Shown here: piece after piece, positions 3,594-63,205 of the stretch
How the letters are laid out: the number at the start of each line of letters is the position of its first letter
How positions within the stretch are numbered: the stretch's first letter is position 1
Assembly: GCA_964612105.1 (NCBI GenBank)
Contig: CAZTEU010000004.1
Coordinates: 60,897 to 124,101, forward strand
From: an uncultured Gammaproteobacteria bacterium
GTDB taxonomy: Bacteria > Patescibacteriota > Patescibacteriia > Magasanikbacterales > UBA922
DNA: 63,205 nt
Reading direction: 5' to 3'
Made by a program: the position numbers and the translations under genes
The notes under the pieces: generated by a model
Databases searched by the model: none
What the model was told of the DNA's origin: nothing
Seen by the model: the letters and a program-made list of their open reading frames with translations, nothing else

Positions 3594-4655
3594 CTAGCAA
3601 TCAAAAAGAAGCTCAAAGTCATTTATAACTATTAGGCGAAGAAAATGCTTCATTGCATATCTTAGCTTGGGGCTACTCTGGTTTGCTAGGTATTCATCTA
3701 TATTAAATATAAGCTGGAACAGCAAATAACCCTTTAATGCCGTCTTTATCAATTCATTTTCCTCTTTTATCTTCATACCACTTCTTCCATACTTTTTCCT
3801 ATAATCCTCCAACCCTTTTCTTATCCTATCTTTCCTGTAAATCCCATCTTTTACTCCTCCATAGTAATAACAAGATTGAGCAATTGTAGCTGCAATATCT
3901 ACAGACCTGTGATCAAACCTAATCCAATCAAAATCAAAGATGCCAGACACAGTATCCCCTATATAATGAACATTTCCAGGATGTAAATCAAAATGTACAA
4001 TTTGTTTTGGTAAACTCCCAAACTTCTTTTCTAAAAACTCTGCCTGAGTCTGTTTTATAAACAAGCGAATCTCATCTTCGTGCCTAGTAAACACAGAACC
4101 AAGAGCTGTTTTGCGCAGAGGGCCTATACGTTTATTAAATTCCTTTGTCATTCCATTAACATAGTCCGCTAGCTCTACATTTTTTATTCGTAAATCCGTA
4201 TTAAAGCCCTTGACCTCCTTGGAGAAGAGGGTGCTAGCCTCAAAAAAACTCTTTGCTTTTTTAGTATCAAATCTTTTTAAGTTATCCCAACTTCCAACAG
4301 CTTTTCCTGGTAAATAATCTTGTAGAGTATAGAAAGTATTTCTGTGAGAGACCAAATATTTCTCCTTATCATTTTTTATTATTCGAGCAGTAAGACCAAA
4401 ACCTCTTTTGTGCAGATATTCTAACACCTGCACCTCCAGCAGAATATGATTTTTCTTCGTTCCTCTACGAGATTCTCTCAATATATATTTCTCTTTGCTA
4501 GAACCAATAGTTACACGGTATACATTGTTAACCAAACCTGTAGAGTTTTGCTCTATGGTAATTTCCTTATTATCAAAAAACCCTCCCCAACTCTTTAGCA
4601 CCTTTAATAGCAAACCGTACTTTTCCTTGGAGATCTTTTTATATATCTTGTTCAT
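3594..4655 (-). CDS. Phosphotransferase, APH/homoserine kinase type II family
   Basis: IVHFDLHPGNV (Brenner motif) and IFDFD. Confidence 0.85.
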   Translation of the reverse strand: MNKIYKKISKEKYGLLLKVLKSWGGFFDNKEITIEQNSTGLVNNVYRVTIGSSKEKYILRESRRGTKKNHILLEVQVLEYLHKRGFGLTARIIKNDKEKYLVSHRNTFYTLQDYLPGKAVGSWDNLKRFDTKKAKSFFEASTLFSKEVKGFNTDLRIKNVELADYVNGMTKEFNKRIGPLRKTALGSVFTRHEDEIRLFIKQTQAEFLEKKFGSLPKQIVHFDLHPGNVHYIGDTVSGIFDFDWIRFDHRSVDIAATIAQSCYYYGGVKDGIYRKDRIRKGLEDYRKKYGRSGMKIKEENELIKTALKGYLLFQLIFNIDEYLANQSSPKLRYAMKHFLRLIVINDFELLFDC

Positions 4656-5244: not shown

Positions 5245-5409
5245 ATGACATTTTGGAGAAACTGGGAGTGGAGGAGCTGTTCTTCCTGCTTTGGAACGGG
5301 CTGGGTAAGTGTCATGCGACATGACGACGATGTAGATGGTGATGAAGTGAGGTGCACTGTGTGCAACGGCAGAGGAAAGGTCAAGGTCGCCAAGGATGAC
5401 GACGACTGA
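5245..5409 (+). CDS. DnaJ-type CxxCxGxG zinc-finger microprotein
   Basis: CSSCFGTG and CTVCNGRG; GAGGTG SD; upstream TTGACA. Confidence 0.7.
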   Translation: MTFWRNWEWRSCSSCFGTGWVSVMRHDDDVDGDEVRCTVCNGRGKVKVAKDDDD

Positions 5410-5429
5410 GACGTCTTCATAAAATTTAT

Positions 5430-5499
5430 AGGGGGAGACGATCGTGAAAACAGTAGGGATCGTCAAACTCAAAACAACACCTGTAAAGGTGTTTTTTTG
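5430..5499 (+). repeat. 70-bp direct repeat, copy 2
   Basis: Identical to 5015-5084. Confidence 0.9.
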
Positions 5500-5953: not shown

Positions 5954-6679
5954 CTACTTATTCTGCTCCCAAAGCATTGTAAACATAGCATCAAAAATAT
6001 CCACCATTGCTGGAACAGCAATAACCACAGCGAGGGAAGAAAGTTCTGGGCTCACTATCAACACCTTGTCTTTAAAAATATCCATCGTACTTTTGAAACC
6101 ATATTTCTTTGGTAAAAATTTCACCTCGCGTAACAGCTCCTTACTTGTAGGACTATCTTTTCTGGATTCCTCTGTAAGAAGAAGTTTTGTCTTTATTTTT
6201 GCCTTTGCTCTGTCTTTTCTGTATTGCACAAAGAATTCTTTATCCAATCCTTGCCAATGCTTTGCTGTTCCAATAATCTTGTACTCTTTTCCTTTATGCT
6301 CTTCTAACACTTCGTCATAAAACTTTTTTAATTCGTCCACTGTTTCAATAAATCTAAGCCCAACCATGTTGAGCTGTTTTTTTTCTAGTGATTCTAGAGA
6401 GGGGATAAGGTCTTCAAAAGAGGACACCTTCTTTTTGTAATGGTCTGCCACTCGTTGGGGCTTGTCTGCGTAAAATAACTGCTTATTCTTTCTGTAATAC
6501 ATCGTCACAAACCCTTTTTTTGACAGAGCCTTAAGAGTTGCGTACACGGTTGTGCGTTTTATACCCACATCTTTGGCTACCGCACTAGCAATAGCTCCGC
6601 CAGAGCGTAGAAGCGAGACATATATGTCTGCTTCTTGGTCAGAGAGCCCAAGATCCTTTAATGCTTGTTTTGAGGCCAT
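5954..6679 (-). CDS. TrmB-like HTH transcriptional regulator
   Basis: LKDLGLSDQEADIYVSLL...IKRTTVYATLKAL winged-HTH N-terminus. Confidence 0.85.
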   Translation of the reverse strand: MASKQALKDLGLSDQEADIYVSLLRSGGAIASAVAKDVGIKRTTVYATLKALSKKGFVTMYYRKNKQLFYADKPQRVADHYKKKVSSFEDLIPSLESLEKKQLNMVGLRFIETVDELKKFYDEVLEEHKGKEYKIIGTAKHWQGLDKEFFVQYRKDRAKAKIKTKLLLTEESRKDSPTSKELLREVKFLPKKYGFKSTMDIFKDKVLIVSPELSSLAVVIAVPAMVDIFDAMFTMLWEQNK

Positions 6680-9932: not shown

Positions 9933-11081
9933 GTGACAGAATATAGTATGAAACTAACGCCCCTAGGTTTTTCAAAAAACGAAGAGAAAGTTTATCTTTC
10001 TTTGTTTGAATTAGGTAAAACTCGTGCTGGAAAAGTGATAGAACACACTTCCCTGCATAGAAATTTGGTCTATACTGCTCTTGAGGCACTTTTGGAGCGT
10101 GATTTAATAACAAAGACACTGCAAGGAGGTGTAAGTGTGTTCTCAGCAAATAATCCAGATAGGTTAGTTGAAGAAATTGAAAGTAAAAAAAGTGAAGCAA
10201 TAGCAATAGCAGAAGAATTAAAGAAGAAAGTTGACCTACAAACAAGAGAAGTTGTAATTTTTGAGGGGGCTGAAGGTATAGAAAGAGCAATGCGCCAGAA
10301 TCTACAAGCTCAAAAAGGAAAAACAGTCTACGCATTGGGTGCTTCCGCAAATAACGAGACATCAGAATCGCAAATGTTTTCAAGAAAATATCATAATGAA
10401 TTGATTGAAAAAGGAATTTCTTTTAAAGCTCTGTACGGAAGAAATGTTGAGGACGGTATTGTTGAAGAAAAAAAGAAATTATCCAACGCAGAAGTAAAAT
10501 ATATGCCAACAAGCATTGAAGCACCCATGTGGTTTAATATTTGTGGGGATGTTAGTTCAATTATTTCAATGGACAAGAACCCCTTGGCAATCAACATAAA
10601 AAGTGAGTCCATTGCGGAAGGATTAAAACAATACTTTAATCACTTATGGAATCAAAAAGTAATGACATTTGAGGGAGACAGAGGGTTTAAACATGCATTT
10701 GGTGATATTTTAAAAACACTCCAAAGAGGAGATGAGCTAATGATTTTGGGAATTCCTGAATTTGATCAAGAGTTTATAAATATGATAAGGGATTTTCATA
10801 AAAAAAGAGCAGGGCAGGGAATTATTTCTAGAATACTGTTAAATGAGGGTGCAAAAGATATGGGAGAGACGCTTAGAAAAATTGCACACACCAAAATTAA
10901 ATATATGCAGCGCGGTGTAGTTACTCCTGCTGCCCTCTTAATTTACAAAAATAAAACATTAATTAGTCTGCCAAGCAGGAGGACTTTTATGCAGATAGAT
11001 GACAAAGAGACTACGCAGTCTTTCACACACCACTTCAATGAGCTGTGGAGTACAAAAGAAAAACAAGATTTAAAAATGTAG
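9933..11081 (+). CDS. TrmB-like regulator with duplicated C-terminal effector domain
   Basis: LGFSKNEEKVYLSLFELG HTH; two VVIFEG/VMTFEG-initiated domains. Confidence 0.8.
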   Translation: MTEYSMKLTPLGFSKNEEKVYLSLFELGKTRAGKVIEHTSLHRNLVYTALEALLERDLITKTLQGGVSVFSANNPDRLVEEIESKKSEAIAIAEELKKKVDLQTREVVIFEGAEGIERAMRQNLQAQKGKTVYALGASANNETSESQMFSRKYHNELIEKGISFKALYGRNVEDGIVEEKKKLSNAEVKYMPTSIEAPMWFNICGDVSSIISMDKNPLAINIKSESIAEGLKQYFNHLWNQKVMTFEGDRGFKHAFGDILKTLQRGDELMILGIPEFDQEFINMIRDFHKKRAGQGIISRILLNEGAKDMGETLRKIAHTKIKYMQRGVVTPAALLIYKNKTLISLPSRRTFMQIDDKETTQSFTHHFNELWSTKEKQDLKM

Positions 11082-59556: not shown

Positions 59557-59692
59557 AATTACATTATAGTGTGTAAATAAAACTTTTAATTTTACATAAC
59601 GTTTGCGTATATGCGAACGTTGTGAATACTTGTATGCCAACATTGGCGAAGCCAACGTACAAGTATGAGTAATTTGGGCGGAGCCCATGGAC

Positions 59693-59920
59693 TTATTTTT
59701 TCCCTTTTCTAAAGTCGCCTTCTTTTAATCCACTGTGAAGCAAAATCGACTGAAATGTACCATGTGGTATTTCCTTCTTCCTAACTTTAATAGTGACTTT
59801 TAATGTTTTCCCTTTTGTAGCTTTTTCATATCTGGCATGCGATCCTTTTTGCCTAACAAAAAAGAAGCCCTTTTCTGATAGGACTTTTAGTACAATTTTT
59901 AATGAAATTGGTCTAGGCAT
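59693..59920 (-). CDS. HicA-family toxin
   Basis: KGFFFVRQKGSH and EIPHGTFQSIL. Confidence 0.9.
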   Translation of the reverse strand: MPRPISLKIVLKVLSEKGFFFVRQKGSHARYEKATKGKTLKVTIKVRKKEIPHGTFQSILLHSGLKEGDFRKGKK

Positions 59921-60131
59921 GTTGGAATTTAAGTCGTTCCAACACAGGACGCTCTATTTTTTGTATTTTAGAAAGAGGAACATCTTCAAGATGAAGTTCC
60001 AGCGCCTCCTGTAATGATTCTAGGGCTTCTTTTTTGGAATCACCAAAACTGGAAACTCCTGTATTAAGATTCCAAGATACATAGTGTTTACCCTCTTTCC
60101 ACACGACATTTTTTAAGTCGATTTTGCGCAT
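59913..60131 (-). CDS. HicB-family antitoxin (short)
   Basis: GVSSFGDSKKEALESLQEALELHLE. Confidence 0.88.
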   Translation of the reverse strand: MRKIDLKNVVWKEGKHYVSWNLNTGVSSFGDSKKEALESLQEALELHLEDVPLSKIQKIERPVLERLKFQHA

Positions 60132-60221
60132 ATTTCTAAGATAATTATACTTGTACTTTACTTAAAAAGAAAAAATAAGTCAAATTGGGCGTAGCCGGTT
60201 ATATGTTGTTATGTGATGCGC

Positions 60222-60461
60222 TTAAAAATTAAAATCTTTTTCCAAACATTCAACATATATTCTCTGTGCTTCTAATTCCATCTCTTCACTTACTTTTATG
60301 AAGTTTTTAGGTGGAAATTCTTCTTGTGTTGTGTTTGTGACTTTAGAATATGCTTCGCTCCAGCAGTTTTTAACTTTTGAGCCAGTTATTAAAAACCAAA
60401 TAAAGATAATGACACCGAGTAGCATAATTACAATGAATGTCCATTTTATTATTTTTTTCAT
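60222..60461 (-). CDS. Small membrane-anchored cassette protein
   Basis: N-terminal TM; lies between attC-like ends. Confidence 0.65.
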   Translation of the reverse strand: MKKIIKWTFIVIMLLGVIIFIWFLITGSKVKNCWSEAYSKVTNTTQEEFPPKNFIKVSEEMELEAQRIYVECLEKDFNF

Positions 60462-60491
60462 ATTTGTATTTTAATAATTATTAAGCATTTC

Positions 60492-60583
60492 ACACAACGT
60501 TTCGGCATAGCCGAAGTTTTGCAGTGGTAAAATGGGAGCGCTAGCGACCCACCACTGCAAAATTTGGGTGAGCGAGCGTTAAA
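60492..60583. repeat. attC-like site 2 (right arm missing)
   Basis: ACACAAC-GTTTC-GGCATA, internal stem TTTTGCAGTGG/CCACTGCAAAA, AATTTGGGTGAGC motif. Confidence 0.55.
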
Positions 60584-60642
60584 AATAAAATCACTTAAAA
60601 CAGTTGTTTAATTCCAAAGACTAGGAGACCGATAACTCCTAA

Positions 60643-60798
60643 AAACAAAATCTATTCTTTGCTTTCTTTTATAATATACTCGCTATACCACTTGCCGCTG
60701 CTGGTTTCTTAAATCCTATTGTTGCGGCTGTTGCTATGAGCTTAAGCAGTGTTTCTGTGGTCGGGAATAGCTTAAGAATTAGGAGGAAAGGATTTTAA
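60643..60798 (+). pseudogene. C-terminal remnant of a heavy-metal P1B-type ATPase
   Basis: [45 protein letters not shown]; in-frame stop immediately upstream. Confidence 0.85.
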
Positions 60799-60938
60799 TA
60801 TTTTCTCTATCAATCACTTGGGGCTATCTTTTGATTAAGAAGACTAACTTTTATAAGGTTGACAAGTTTGCCCTCCCGTGCTATATATAACCCCACAAAA
60901 CCCGCCCTTTAGTCTGGGCACGTTCTTTGGAGAATCAA

Positions 60939-61424
60939 ATGAAGAAAGTAGTACTTTCTGCACTTCCTTTTATGGTGTACGGTATTGTGGCGTATTTGAT
61001 CTCGGCTCATGTCTTCTATGCGGCGTCTGGTTCTTTCAACGCATCTACCGCATTTGCCGCCAGATTAGCTACCTTCACTGCCGTATACACCACCTTCCTC
61101 TCTGCAGCCACTATCAGTGATACTTTCAGAAGTACTATCGCCGATCTGGGCTTCGCCGTCGCTTTTGCTTTCGCTTGCGCTTACATCATCACTGTCTTCT
61201 CCACCAACCTCACCAACACTACCTTCTTTGCCTACTTTGTCACCCTTGTTTTCGCCGCTGCCTACGCTGCCGCCATGCCCACCATAATCGGCGGTATCAG
61301 TGGCTCCATCGATCTAGGCGAGTATCCAGTCAATGTGGTCTACTGGAAGGCTTTCCTTGTCTATCTTCTTGAGGCGATAGCCATCTTCACATTCGTCTAC
61401 TTCTACCATATCAGTGTTGAATGA
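60939..61424 (+). CDS. GC-rich multi-TM orphan
   Basis: TTGACA promoter, GGAG SD, 3' GC hairpin and CACCT/AGGTG terminator. Confidence 0.65.
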   Translation: MKKVVLSALPFMVYGIVAYLISAHVFYAASGSFNASTAFAARLATFTAVYTTFLSAATISDTFRSTIADLGFAVAFAFACAYIITVFSTNLTNTTFFAYFVTLVFAAAYAAAMPTIIGGISGSIDLGEYPVNVVYWKAFLVYLLEAIAIFTFVYFYHISVE

Positions 61425-61571
61425 TATAATGGAGGAGAACCTAACCCCTCGTGCCCACCGACTAAGCATCGGCTGGGCACGGGCGGGCAAACACAATTAA
61501 CCACCTAAATAGGTGTTTTTTTATTTGCCCCAAGAGATTGATAGTGTAAAAAAAGAAATGGGAAAACAATT

Positions 61572-61677
61572 TCGTACAACGTTTCGGCATATCTGATGTT
61601 TGCCGTAGCGTAGCGGAGGCAAATATGGGTGGAGGCTTTTGTATAAAAGCCGTAACCAGATATGCCGTGTTGTACGA
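61572..61677. repeat. attC-like site 3 (complete)
   Basis: TCGTACAAC-GTTTC-GGCATATCTG … CAGATATGCC-GT-GTTGTACGA. Confidence 0.8.
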
Positions 61678-61735
61678 TGTAATGAAAAATTCTTAATTCG
61701 CGATAGCGAATTATTTAATCGGGCAAATTTATTTT

Positions 61736-62554
61736 TTAAGTTTTTTCTTGCAATTTCAAATCTTCTTTCGAGACACCTAATAATTCATGTAGATATTGAT
61801 ATACTTCTTCAGTATTATCTCTGGAAAATTTTGCAATAATTTCATCCTTTGAAACATAGTCAGGTATTAAATATTCATCTTCTTCTAATCCAAAATGATT
61901 GTCCGTATTACTGTTTATTACAGAATCAATTGGAATTTTAAGAACATAAATTTCATATTGAAGCTGTTCTGCTGCGTCCGGTACATTTCCAGTACCAGCC
62001 TCTGCACAAGGAATACTGGTTGTGGCCGAAATGAATGACGAACCACCTCTTTGACTTTGTTTCATAGCAAGTTCTTCTGCGATACTTTGGGAAGATGGTT
62101 TGGCTACTGTAAGATAACGTTCATCTCCATAAATTGCATAACCGACTTCGTCTGATGATTGAAGTTGTTCCGTTAACTGTTTGGTTGATAATTTTCCATA
62201 TCCATAGGTTCTTGTGTAAAAACCTTTCTCGTCTAAATTAGGATGATCCCCGCGTAGTAAATAAATAAAACCGTCTTTGATAAATTTTGGATTTAACGTA
62301 GTTTTCCATAATTCAAATTGTAATTCAGAAATTCTTGTTCTATCTTGGTATCCATTTTCTCTAAGAATTTCCTCAATATCACGACTGGAATATAATAAAC
62401 TTTTCCTATCAAATAAAGAAACGAGTTCCGGGTTATCTTTGATATTTTCCCAGTTCGCCCAAAGATTATCTAATCGTTCTTTACGTTGTTCTAGATTTTC
62501 TTGTACTGCTTCTGGATTTTTTATGAATTGTGGGTCTCTGCCAAAATTTTCCAT
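61736..62554 (-). CDS. Cassette protein, putative R-S-E ADP-ribosyltransferase fold
   Basis: YLLRGD, SFISATTS and EEDEYL in the expected order. Confidence 0.5.
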   Translation of the reverse strand: MENFGRDPQFIKNPEAVQENLEQRKERLDNLWANWENIKDNPELVSLFDRKSLLYSSRDIEEILRENGYQDRTRISELQFELWKTTLNPKFIKDGFIYLLRGDHPNLDEKGFYTRTYGYGKLSTKQLTEQLQSSDEVGYAIYGDERYLTVAKPSSQSIAEELAMKQSQRGGSSFISATTSIPCAEAGTGNVPDAAEQLQYEIYVLKIPIDSVINSNTDNHFGLEEDEYLIPDYVSKDEIIAKFSRDNTEEVYQYLHELLGVSKEDLKLQEKT

Positions 62555-62625
62555 ATATGTAGATTTAAAAAATAAATTTGCCCCGATTAATTTGCCCGAC
62601 AGGGCAAAAAGAATTTTTCATTATT

Positions 62626-62811
62626 TCGTACAATGTACCTGCATAAGAGAAGTTGCGCCGTCTAAATCATCGAGATCGTCATCATCAAGCATACAGTATA
62701 GATACCATCAATCGTCAATATCAGTAGCGCAATTTGGGAGAGGGGAAACGCAACACCTTATCAAAATTAAATTTTTGCTTTTCCCCGAACCTCTTATGCA
62801 GTGTTATAAGA
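62626..62811. repeat. attC-like site 4 (long loop)
   Basis: TCGTACAAT-GTACC-TGCATAAGAG … CTCTTATGCA-GT-GTTATAA. Confidence 0.75.
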
Positions 62812-62829
62812 TGTAATCAAAAGCCGCCG

Positions 62830-63174
62830 TTATTTACCGTTTAGTTTTCTAATCCTTTTAATAACTGAATCTTGGTACAATCTAAAAGCTTTTCGTTTCT
62901 CCTTTGGGTATAGATATGGCGTCCCAAGAACTTCTCTACAATGTCCGCATGTTAGTTTAGGAATACTTTTCAGGCTTATATTTTGAAGATCAATAAATTT
63001 TGTTGGGTGAAGTATTCGATCCATATATAAGCGCCGTAAGTTCCCAGAACCGTCTTTTTGATACACCAAAAGTAATTTTTCACACTTACGACAGGACACA
63101 TTCAACAACCTTGAGTGTCCGCCCCGACTCGATTTATACTTATCTCGTTTAAACGAAAAGCTTGTTCTCTTCAT
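62830..63174 (-). CDS. Basic zinc-ribbon cassette protein
   Basis: CRKC and CGHC; YQKDGSGNLRRLY. Confidence 0.7.
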   Translation of the reverse strand: MKRTSFSFKRDKYKSSRGGHSRLLNVSCRKCEKLLLVYQKDGSGNLRRLYMDRILHPTKFIDLQNISLKSIPKLTCGHCREVLGTPYLYPKEKRKAFRLYQDSVIKRIRKLNGK

Positions 63175-63194
63175 ATAAGGCTTTTGATTATTTC

Positions 63195-63205
63195 ATATAA
63201 CGTTC
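63195..63205. repeat. Start of attC-like site 5 (cut by window edge)
   Basis: ATATAAC-GTTC, preceded by an inverted repeat of 62803-62825. Confidence 0.55.

Follow-up and report, generated by a model that had tools for sequence, protein, structure and literature searches.

Organisation of the array at the end of contig C4

We analysed a 63,205-nucleotide stretch of DNA (hereafter the window), corresponding to positions 60897–124101 of contig C4 in the genome of an uncultured member of the Patescibacteria (Magasanikbacteria type), and identified at its right-hand end, between positions 59594 and 63205, a series of attC-type hairpin sites alternating with small genes. The host genome (G000) comprises 945 kb in eight contigs, has a G+C content of 37–40% and is 98% complete; the right edge of the window is the end of contig C4. 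Positions below are window coordinates unless a contig is named, and L-numbers denote compared public or metagenome contigs. Integrons are the textbook gene-capture device of bacteria, and the feature that defines their integrase is an additional domain, by which the flipped-out bases of the folded attC are recognised. The array described here is a real integron-type array of a widespread variant, in which attC sites without extrahelical bases are accompanied by a short integrase resembling both IntI and XerA. We consider it likely that region 59594–63205 is the integrase-distal part of an integron-type gene-capture element that operates by the mechanism proposed below.

Two hairpin sites in the window are complete; besides these there are two half sites, a fragment, and a site that the contig end truncates. 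Read on the plus strand, a site begins with tATTTC, the R'' box (RYAYAAC), a 4-nt spacer (GTWY) and the 11-nt L'' arm, followed by A[AT]-GTT and a first hairpin (A) that leads to AAWWTGGGNGRRG. Beyond AAWWTGGGNGRRG lie a second hairpin (B), G(T)AAC, the L' arm (11 nt, a perfect complement of L''), a 1-nt spacer (T), the R' box (GTTRYRY) and GATGTA. An earlier note on this DNA had listed sites at 59594, 60492, 61572, 62626 and 63195, and the elements it described are present at all five; the spacers it placed on either side of the L stem also exist, with sizes of 4 and 1 nt instead of 5 and 2 nt when the L stem is counted as 11 bp. The motif ATTTC-RYAYAAY-GT is confined to these 3.6 kb within the 945-kb genome, and the set of sites lies far beyond what chance would produce.

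The two complete sites, like the other sites listed here, are oriented on the minus strand. Site 3 spans 61568–61681 with its flanks (61574–61675 box to box, 102 nt) and belongs to the cassette of a 272-aa protein; it combines a perfect 11-bp L stem with a 7-bp R box, and near-identical site types occur in other genera. Site 4 spans 62622–62815 with its flanks (62628–62809 box to box, 182 nt), belongs to the cassette of a 114-aa protein and reads ATT, not GTT, at the crossover box of its top strand. Their scores against the covariance model R1 described below, 103.9 bits (E 7e-22) for site 3 and 98.8 bits (E 1.3e-20) for site 4, are partly self-matches, as both were among the 31 sequences used to build it. 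Only the first 13 nt of the next attC (tATTTC-ATATAAC-GTTC; 63193–63205, minus strand) precede the contig end; the same site is complete in L212 and L216 (104.9 and 103.9 bits).

The remaining sites are incomplete. At the distal end of the array, sequence and folds identify a half site (59594–59690, minus strand) that represents the 3' half of an attC, with the CCCAAATT box, a hairpin, L' (CGCATATACGC), AAAC, R' (GTTATGT) and AAAAT; no L'/R' partner was found for it on the plus strand. The fragment at 60183–60225 carries, on the minus strand, R'' (ACATAAC), A, L'' and the CCCAATTT box, at which it is truncated. It gives a weak R1 match (16.9 bits) on homologous contigs and forms a 14/16-nt direct repeat with 59667–59683, the two copies flanking hicBA. 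Half site 2 (60492–60580, minus strand) shows R'', GTTT, L'', hairpin A and the TGGG box on the plus strand, its other half being missing, and its R1 match (38.4 bits) extends over a spurious 3' arm. The half sites at 59594 and 60492 stop a few bases past the TGGG box. More generally, all three incomplete sites (59667–59683, 60183–60198 and 60560–60580) break a few bases past the AAWWTGGGNGNAGC box, which may be a secondary recombination or insertion point; the L arms of the two halves around hicBA are non-complementary.

The open reading frame (ORF) list confirmed the earlier observation that the genes between the sites lie on the minus strand. Proximal to the contig end is a gene for a Cys-rich, zinc-ribbon-like protein of 114 aa (62830–63174; ORF list and Pfam, no family), and next to it the 272-aa gene, also without a family (61736–62554), which is followed by a terminator-like hairpin (61713–61694). 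These two integrase-proximal cassettes are the only ones in the window with intact sites. Further to the left, the 79-aa protein encoded at 60222–60461 (minus strand; from the ORF list) is predicted to be membrane-anchored and has no Pfam or PADLOC match. The last cassette carries hicA, for a 75-aa toxin (59693–59920, minus strand; PF07927 HicA_toxin, E 1.7e-13), overlapping by 8 nt a gene for a 72-aa DUF7387 protein (59913–60131, minus strand; PF24113, E 1e-8), which by its position is a probable hicB-type antitoxin. This hicBA pair is placed between two incomplete sites, both breaking at the TGGG box. No cassette protein matched PADLOC, and the Pfam matches among them were only HicA, DUF7387, glyoxalase, S51 peptidase and AAA_33 kinase. 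In the population, a T-to-A change (L216 position 1966 versus L212 position 1838) turns a Leu codon of the 272-aa gene into a stop, which suggests that this cassette is dispensable; two small genes in L216 were considered as a swap for the 272-aa cassette, and this was rejected because the single nonsense polymorphism explains them.

A foreign insertion (60600–61560, plus strand), recognised from its sequence and ORFs, lies within the array and occupies the place of the missing half of site 2. It holds the 3' fragment of a P-type ATPase gene (about 60686–60797, plus strand), as judged from the translated tail, and a G+C-rich gene for a 165-aa membrane protein (60927–61424, plus strand) with its own TTGACA/TATATA promoter and terminator. 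Inverted repeats, also G+C-rich, flank the latter gene, and a terminator-like site is present at 61502–61515.

A covarying family of hairpin sites with a strand bias

A pattern search in 60 relatives of the host identified tandem copies of the site in several genera. Scanning for the R''..L''/L'..R' geometry yielded 42 candidate sites, and R1 was built from an alignment of 31 sites. RNAalifold recovered the R box and the 11-bp L stem from this alignment, and nine of the 11 pairs of the L stem show double compensatory changes, in up to 19 of the 31 sequences. Site lengths range from 57 to 348 nt with a median of 126, and the spacers measure 4 nt (GTTT, GTTC or GTAT) and 1 nt (T in 194 of 223 sites). 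The perfect L stem is followed by a conserved A[AT] bulge and GTT/AAC, and the flanks tATTTC/GATGTA pair in the fold, so that the R arm is lengthened to ~11–13 bp and the site acquires an 11-6-11, dif-like geometry. With filters off, R1 gave no match to class 1 attC at E<=10; together with the absence of extrahelical bases, this bears out the description of the sites in the earlier note as a distinctive family.

Folding of both strands, which that note had proposed as a check, revealed no extrahelical bases and a marked strand preference: 201 of 223 distinct sites are more stable when folded as the strand that corresponds to the window plus strand (mean -2.8 kcal/mol, p 9e-30). R1 likewise scores 93–105 bits on this strand versus 9–25 bits on the opposite one. 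The favoured strand carries AA|C at its 5' side (the vertical bar marks a junction here and below) and corresponds to the bottom strand of classical attC. In classical sites, spacer and loop skew aid the choice of the bottom strand besides extrahelical bases (Nivina et al, PMC5027507).

Within the host genome, R1 identified the two complete sites, half site 2 weakly, and one solo site on contig C3 (34755–34902, minus strand, 56 bits). The solo site is located just 3' of recR amid dnaB, ybaB and recR; both its flanks are present as a perfectly pairing ATTTC/GAAAT, and no cassette array adjoins it. A second site type was observed in L034 (contig C2 of genome G051), where sites of 81–83 nt at 3754–3836, 5372–5452 and 6434–6514 alternate with the main type and read ..TAAT-GGGC-GGCGGATATCTG..CAGATATCCGAC-A-GTTACGC-GAAGTC. 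Related sites with GGGT or GGGC spacers lie near the integrase in L049 and L035.

Cassette footprint, polarity and crossover

The boxes of neighbouring sites are related across the gene that separates them. On average, 2.98 of the four distal positions of R' in one site pair with R'' of the next (44 of 84 distinct site pairs perfect), compared with 1.76–1.90 for the boxes of the same site and 1.76 +/- 0.10 for permuted sites; none of 5000 permutations reached the observed value. This cross-gene pairing is the hybrid-box footprint that circular cassettes would be expected to leave when cleavage and joining take place at the border of the AAC/GTT core with the remainder of the site.

In 80 of 87 inter-site intervals, the longest ORF and the R''->R' reading of the site are on opposite strands, and therefore a site follows each gene on the gene strand. 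On the window minus strand a cassette reads TT-RYRY-GAAAT, gene, TACATC-RYAYAAC-A-L'', variable hairpins and L'-RWAC-G. Where genes occur in two contexts, in variant or duplicated cassettes, the downstream attC stays with the gene. The opposite orientation, with the window plus strand as the cassette top strand and attI at the left end, was considered and rejected, as an R''-type half box abuts attI beside the integrase; the retention of attC downstream of the gene in variant cassettes also contradicts it.

The crossover point could be mapped on natural junctions. A cassette encoding the same 225-aa protein occurs after attI in L210 (CCCTAG|TTAGGCG) and after another attC in L225 (GATACA|TTAGGCG). 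The identity between these junctions, CCCTAG|TTAGGCGAAAT and GATACA|TTAGGCGAAAT, begins at TT, which places the crossover at [G/A]|TT of the cassette strand. Junction variants read on the window plus strand map to TAAC|TAGGG. As in integrons, the newer cassettes are those nearer attI.

A short integrase with an adjoining attI

No gene at the integron-integrase cut-off of the TIGR02249 model was found in the host genome or 60 relatives. Most relatives carry a ~270–280-aa protein that matches positions 1–180 and 237–313 of this model, and the host encodes such a short integrase (~270 aa) on contig C8 (9770–10579), 185 nt from the contig end and divergent from the cassettes. The search for intI suggested by the earlier note thus revealed a related tyrosine recombinase, and no canonical IntI with the additional (I2) domain.

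The C8 recombinase contains a Pfam Phage_integrase domain (PF00589, E 9.6e-44) and a SAM-like domain 4. Its best solved relative is VchIntIA (2a3v, E 2e-46), followed by P. abyssi XerA (4a8e, E 1.2e-44). The match to VchIntIA is split, with residues 10–179 and 195–270 of the query aligning with residues 11–183 and 242–317 of IntI4 and residues 184–241 skipped. A MAFFT alignment with two canonical IntIs from a metagenome-assembled genome (MAG; 444 and 422 bits) showed that the short forms are without ~50 aa at the position of I2. They keep the conserved catalytic motifs and share the C-terminal I[KR]SPL(D) tail of IntI, which is absent from XerA and from the other Xer-like proteins of the host. 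The short-recombinase family comprises >7400 clusters, often on very short contigs, and is annotated as 'site-specific tyrosine recombinase/integron integrase' or XerD. In one contig of Candidatus Kerfeldbacteria (MHKF01000018.1; L077, 2363–3406), the short integrase gene beside a five-site array carries an interruption of ~1 kb with no gene-strand ORF, at residue ~180–184, where canonical IntIs carry the I2 domain; this is probably an inactivating insertion.

Wherever the sites and the short integrase share a contig, the sites are upstream and in the same orientation, and the cassette genes and the integrase gene are divergent. This fixed polarity was observed in >12 loci in all, including L035, L041, L043, L049, L050, L051, L052, L054, L056, L058, L061 and L062. 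An attI-like element, ..tATTTC-NNNTAAC|TANNNTATAY.., lies 110–135 nt before the ATG and is conserved in 15 loci. By the pairing rule that links neighbouring sites, its left part pairs with the last attC, perfectly so in L050, L052, L054 and L056 (boxes compared by reading). The attI of C8, at the contig end, reads ..GTTCGTATATACCCTA-G|TTA... Between its crossover and the start of the integrase gene, two direct repeats of GGGTATATACG (C8:10707–10717 and 10748–10758) are possible accessory integrase-binding sites; DR1 and DR2 of attI1 are a comparable feature.

Contig C8 and contig C18 of a relative (G029) begin exactly at the TAAC of attI. The identical integrase protein was found on nine metagenome contigs, which are identical to C8 downstream of TAAC, and the same integrase and attI are joined to different cassettes at TAAC|TAGGG, with L208, L209 and L211 differing from L210. 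The 114-aa cassette of the window occurs on >24 metagenome contigs, with several upstream cassettes and two different upstream attCs. Cassettes turn over in natural populations.

These contigs also connect the window with C8. L225 shares an overlap of 1128 nt with L210 and one of 982 nt with L212, each with 100% identity, and L212 is the window reversed. The resulting path (C8/L210 to L225 to L212 to the window) runs from the integrase and attI through the cassettes for the 225-aa protein, glyoxalase, the 251+69-aa proteins, S51 peptidase, and the 114-aa and 272-aa proteins to the insertion, the 79-aa cassette, hicBA and a tag gene; being built from sister-sample contigs, it is inferred for one population, which is present in the JGI samples 3300007504–3300009376. 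The earlier note had suggested that the integrase may lie beyond the right edge of the window, and 100%-identical contigs indeed join the window end, via five more cassettes, to the attI and integrase of C8. Its comparison with clusters of attC sites lacking integron-integrases (CALINs) is formally correct for C4, as the window contains no recombinase; most likely, though, the array is the distal part of a complete element, and the contig overlaps indicate that its integrase-less state on C4 is an artefact of assembly breaks. Contigs with the short integrase end within ~100–350 nt upstream of the gene in many relatives (for example G024:C26, G035:C75, G025:C54, G029:C18, G016:C6, G020:C8, G032:C1 and G034:C4). 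Variation among the cassettes that adjoin attI appears to interrupt assemblies systematically in MAGs of the candidate phyla radiation (CPR).

Distribution of the site family

Matches to R1 at E<=1e-6 were found in 55 of 401 sampled Patescibacteria genomes, from >40 families, under strict filters and with only 7 candidates scored per genome. Public contigs with the same site family are mostly labelled Patescibacteria, and in a GTDB-wide pattern scan most records among the matches listed carry this label, with many candidate phyla represented. R1-confirmed sites also occur in bins labelled Spirochaetales, Leptospirales, Ignavibacteriaceae, Bdellovibrionales, Omnitrophota, DPANN and Altarchaeum; the integrase at these loci, where present, is the short form, and the short contigs among them may be binning errors. 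Several MAGs of 0.8–1.4 Mb with arrays and a short integrase, among them 'Gammaproteobacteria' MAGs of ~1 Mb whose sites R1 confirmed, are named 'uncultured Gammaproteobacteria' or 'Pseudomonadales' (L090, L108, L114, L126, L136, L148, G454, G458, G459 and G465), and these labels are probably wrong. Carriage by phages was considered and rejected, as the 13 viral contigs that match the site pattern give no R1 match. An Rfam scan of the window identified tRNAs only, Rfam holding no attC family. Full-text literature searches found no description of integrons in Patescibacteria/CPR and none of integron integrases without the I2 domain.

Proposed mechanism and alternative explanations

The covariation of the sites, the cross-gene pairing of their boxes, the co-oriented genes and the fixed polarity with a recombinase and an attI-like site uphold the attC-like reading put forward in the earlier note. 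In the mechanism that we propose, the integrase would act on the window-plus ('bottom') strand of attC in its folded form and cut the conserved AAC between A and C. That strand would be exchanged with attI or a different attC; in this way, circular cassettes would be excised, and these would be inserted preferentially at attI, as in classical integrons. We infer that the short recombinase catalyses these reactions and that the substrate is single-stranded folded DNA. Strand choice would depend on the central loop of 4 nt and 1 nt and on the strand-biased stability of the fold, which would replace extrahelical bases and I2 in this role.

Several observations weigh against this interpretation. 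The C8 recombinase passes the XerA model NF040815 (232.5 bits, cut-off 220) and falls below the integron-integrase cut-offs of TIGR02249 (214 versus 265 bits) and NF011946 (147 versus 435 bits). It is without the I2 domain, which is held necessary for attC recombination, and the L stem of the sites has no extrahelical bases. No match to a sigma-70-like promoter (Pc) was found in the 310 nt of C8 that contain attI, a consensus that may not suit this phylum, and the match counts of the promoter scans were not above shuffled expectation. Identical attC cores stand behind different genes (L212 versus L216 and L215 versus L217), which requires either that attC types are shared or that sites undergo homologous recombination with each other. 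The left half of the array is degraded, with half sites and the foreign insertion, and the link between C4 and C8 is through sister-sample contigs, not one molecule. In the structure of VchIntIA with VCR, I2 reportedly contacts the extrahelical bases, and because of this contact the joint absence of I2 and of such bases would be coherent.

Among the alternatives, the same element could work by double-strand chemistry of the Xer/dif type, with ATTTCRYAYAA-CGTTTC-GGCATATCTGA (11-6-11) as a duplex core, as in integrative mobile elements exploiting Xer (IMEX) or the pdif modules of Acinetobacter; the hairpins would then serve elsewhere, for example in transcription termination or cruciform formation. 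The R arm with its flank, the 6-nt centre and the L arm do have the geometry of an Xer core, and R' with its flank, TTATATGAAAT, resembles the XerD arm of E. coli dif (TTATGTTAAAT). The recombinase passes the XerA model and is without I2, and IntI itself retains double-strand activity (PMC4792948). However, the L arm varies freely between sites and its complement covaries perfectly, as expected of a folded substrate and not of a duplex arm read by a protein. The stability of the fold is also strongly strand-biased, and the mirror-image half of the site has a 'central region' of 3 nt, which is unusable as a duplex core. We therefore regard duplex recombination as unlikely, albeit as the most probable of the alternatives.

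It is considerably less probable that the array is a canonical integron served by a standard IntI with I2, unassembled or acting in trans, in which case the short recombinase (an Xer paralogue, for instance) would lie nearby without being related to the array. Integrase-less CALINs are common in bacteria and archaea (PMC9668308), and two canonical IntIs occur, together with such sites, in one MAG from outside the CPR (G461). Yet the R1-type sites of G461 adjoin the short form, and none was found by its canonical IntIs, whose contigs end within ~100–800 nt of the gene. No protein of the host genome and 61 relatives attains the TIGR02249 cut-off, and in >12 loci the sites are next to the short recombinase with a fixed polarity, the attI junction lying 110–135 nt from the start of its gene. 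Finally, the sites could be structured intergenic repeats among accessory genes, similar to repetitive extragenic palindromes, miniature inverted-repeat transposable elements or terminators, and not recombination sites at all. Their position just 3' of genes, their stable hairpins and the solo copy behind recR in a housekeeping region fit such repeats, which would not be expected to show cross-gene box pairing, junction polymorphism exactly at [G/A]|TT or confinement to arrays beside a recombinase; moreover, a separate terminator hairpin is already present between gene and site. We find this explanation the least credible of all, and retain the integron-type element as the preferred interpretation.

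A broader hypothesis, to which we would give even odds, is that a large, active lineage of integrons exists in Patescibacteria and, as it appears, in some Spirochaetota, Ignavibacteria and DPANN-labelled bins, and that in this lineage hairpins recombine without I2 or extrahelical bases, the strand being chosen through the 4/1 loop and fold stability. Such a lineage would be either a surviving pre-I2 stage derived from Xer/dif or the product of secondary streamlining. If this is true, I2 would be unnecessary for cassette capture under either origin, and the lineage would offer a testable model of how single-strand hairpin recombination evolved from Xer-type recombination, bearing on the origin of integrons. 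It would also represent the main platform for accessory-gene exchange in the ultra-small Patescibacteria, whose mobile elements are poorly known, and would explain the recurrent assembly break in CPR MAGs; surveys based on canonical IntI are suggested to under-count integron-like elements. The particular value of the window is that population contigs map the crossover and tie the array to attI.

Comparison with known systems

The element resembles sedentary chromosomal integrons and CALINs, such as the Vibrio cholerae superintegron (PMC9024848), in its divergent integrase gene with an adjoining attI, and its layout equals that of the class 1 integron that we compared (L223). As in integrons, single-gene cassettes all point in one direction, and behind each comes a hairpin site that is imperfectly conserved and whose boxes read ..AAC/GTT... 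The G|TT crossover, the hybrid R boxes, the site lengths of 57–348 nt, the toxin-antitoxin cassettes and the turnover at the population level are also shared. The differences concern the integrase, which in this family is without the I2 domain of ~45 aa, and the host, a Patescibacteria genome of ~0.95 Mb. At the level of the site, the class 1 dfrA5 attC has spacers of 5/5 nt and two extra bases on one L arm, whereas the present family has spacers of 4/1 nt and no extra bases. Further features that set it apart from classical attC are a conserved box inside the site (AAWWTGGG) and flanks (tATTTC/GATGTA), likewise conserved, by which the R arm becomes longer.

Similarities also exist with archaeal integrons (Ghaly et al, 2022, PMC9668308), which come from MAGs of episymbiotic lineages with small genomes; most are CALINs on fragmented contigs, and attI is placed next to intI. 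Some DPANN- or Altarchaeum-labelled contigs carry the present site family. Archaeal IntIs possess the IntI-specific additional domain (PMC9668308), in contrast to the recombinases beside the present sites, including that on the Altarchaeum-labelled contig L153; the Altarchaeum contig is not listed in the supplement of that paper.

The system shares with Xer/dif and archaeal XerA a recombinase that passes NF040815 and can be aligned over its whole length with P. abyssi XerA (4a8e), as well as sites with an R arm, 6 nt and an L arm. Xer/dif, IMEX and Acinetobacter pdif modules differ from it, as the present element has long, covarying hairpins in multiple copies, tandem arrays, and a dedicated recombinase gene with attI. 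Unlike Xer proteins, the recombinase has an IntI-type C-terminal SPL tail, and no role in chromosome dimer resolution is indicated. On contig C2 of the host (64234–64261) we observed a dif-like palindrome, TGTTCATATAA-TGTATA-TTATACGCTAA, whose left arm equals the R arm of attC with its flank (TTCATATAA). It is the only good candidate found for the host dif and is not located at a GC-skew switch, so that this identity is unsupported.

According to one proposal, integron integrases descend from double-strand recombinases that acquired the I2 helix (Escudero et al, 2016, PMC4792948; 2020, PMC7790495). The enzymes in those studies are engineered or evolved variants of IntI1, whereas the short recombinases described here form a natural and widespread I2-less lineage associated with hairpin sites.

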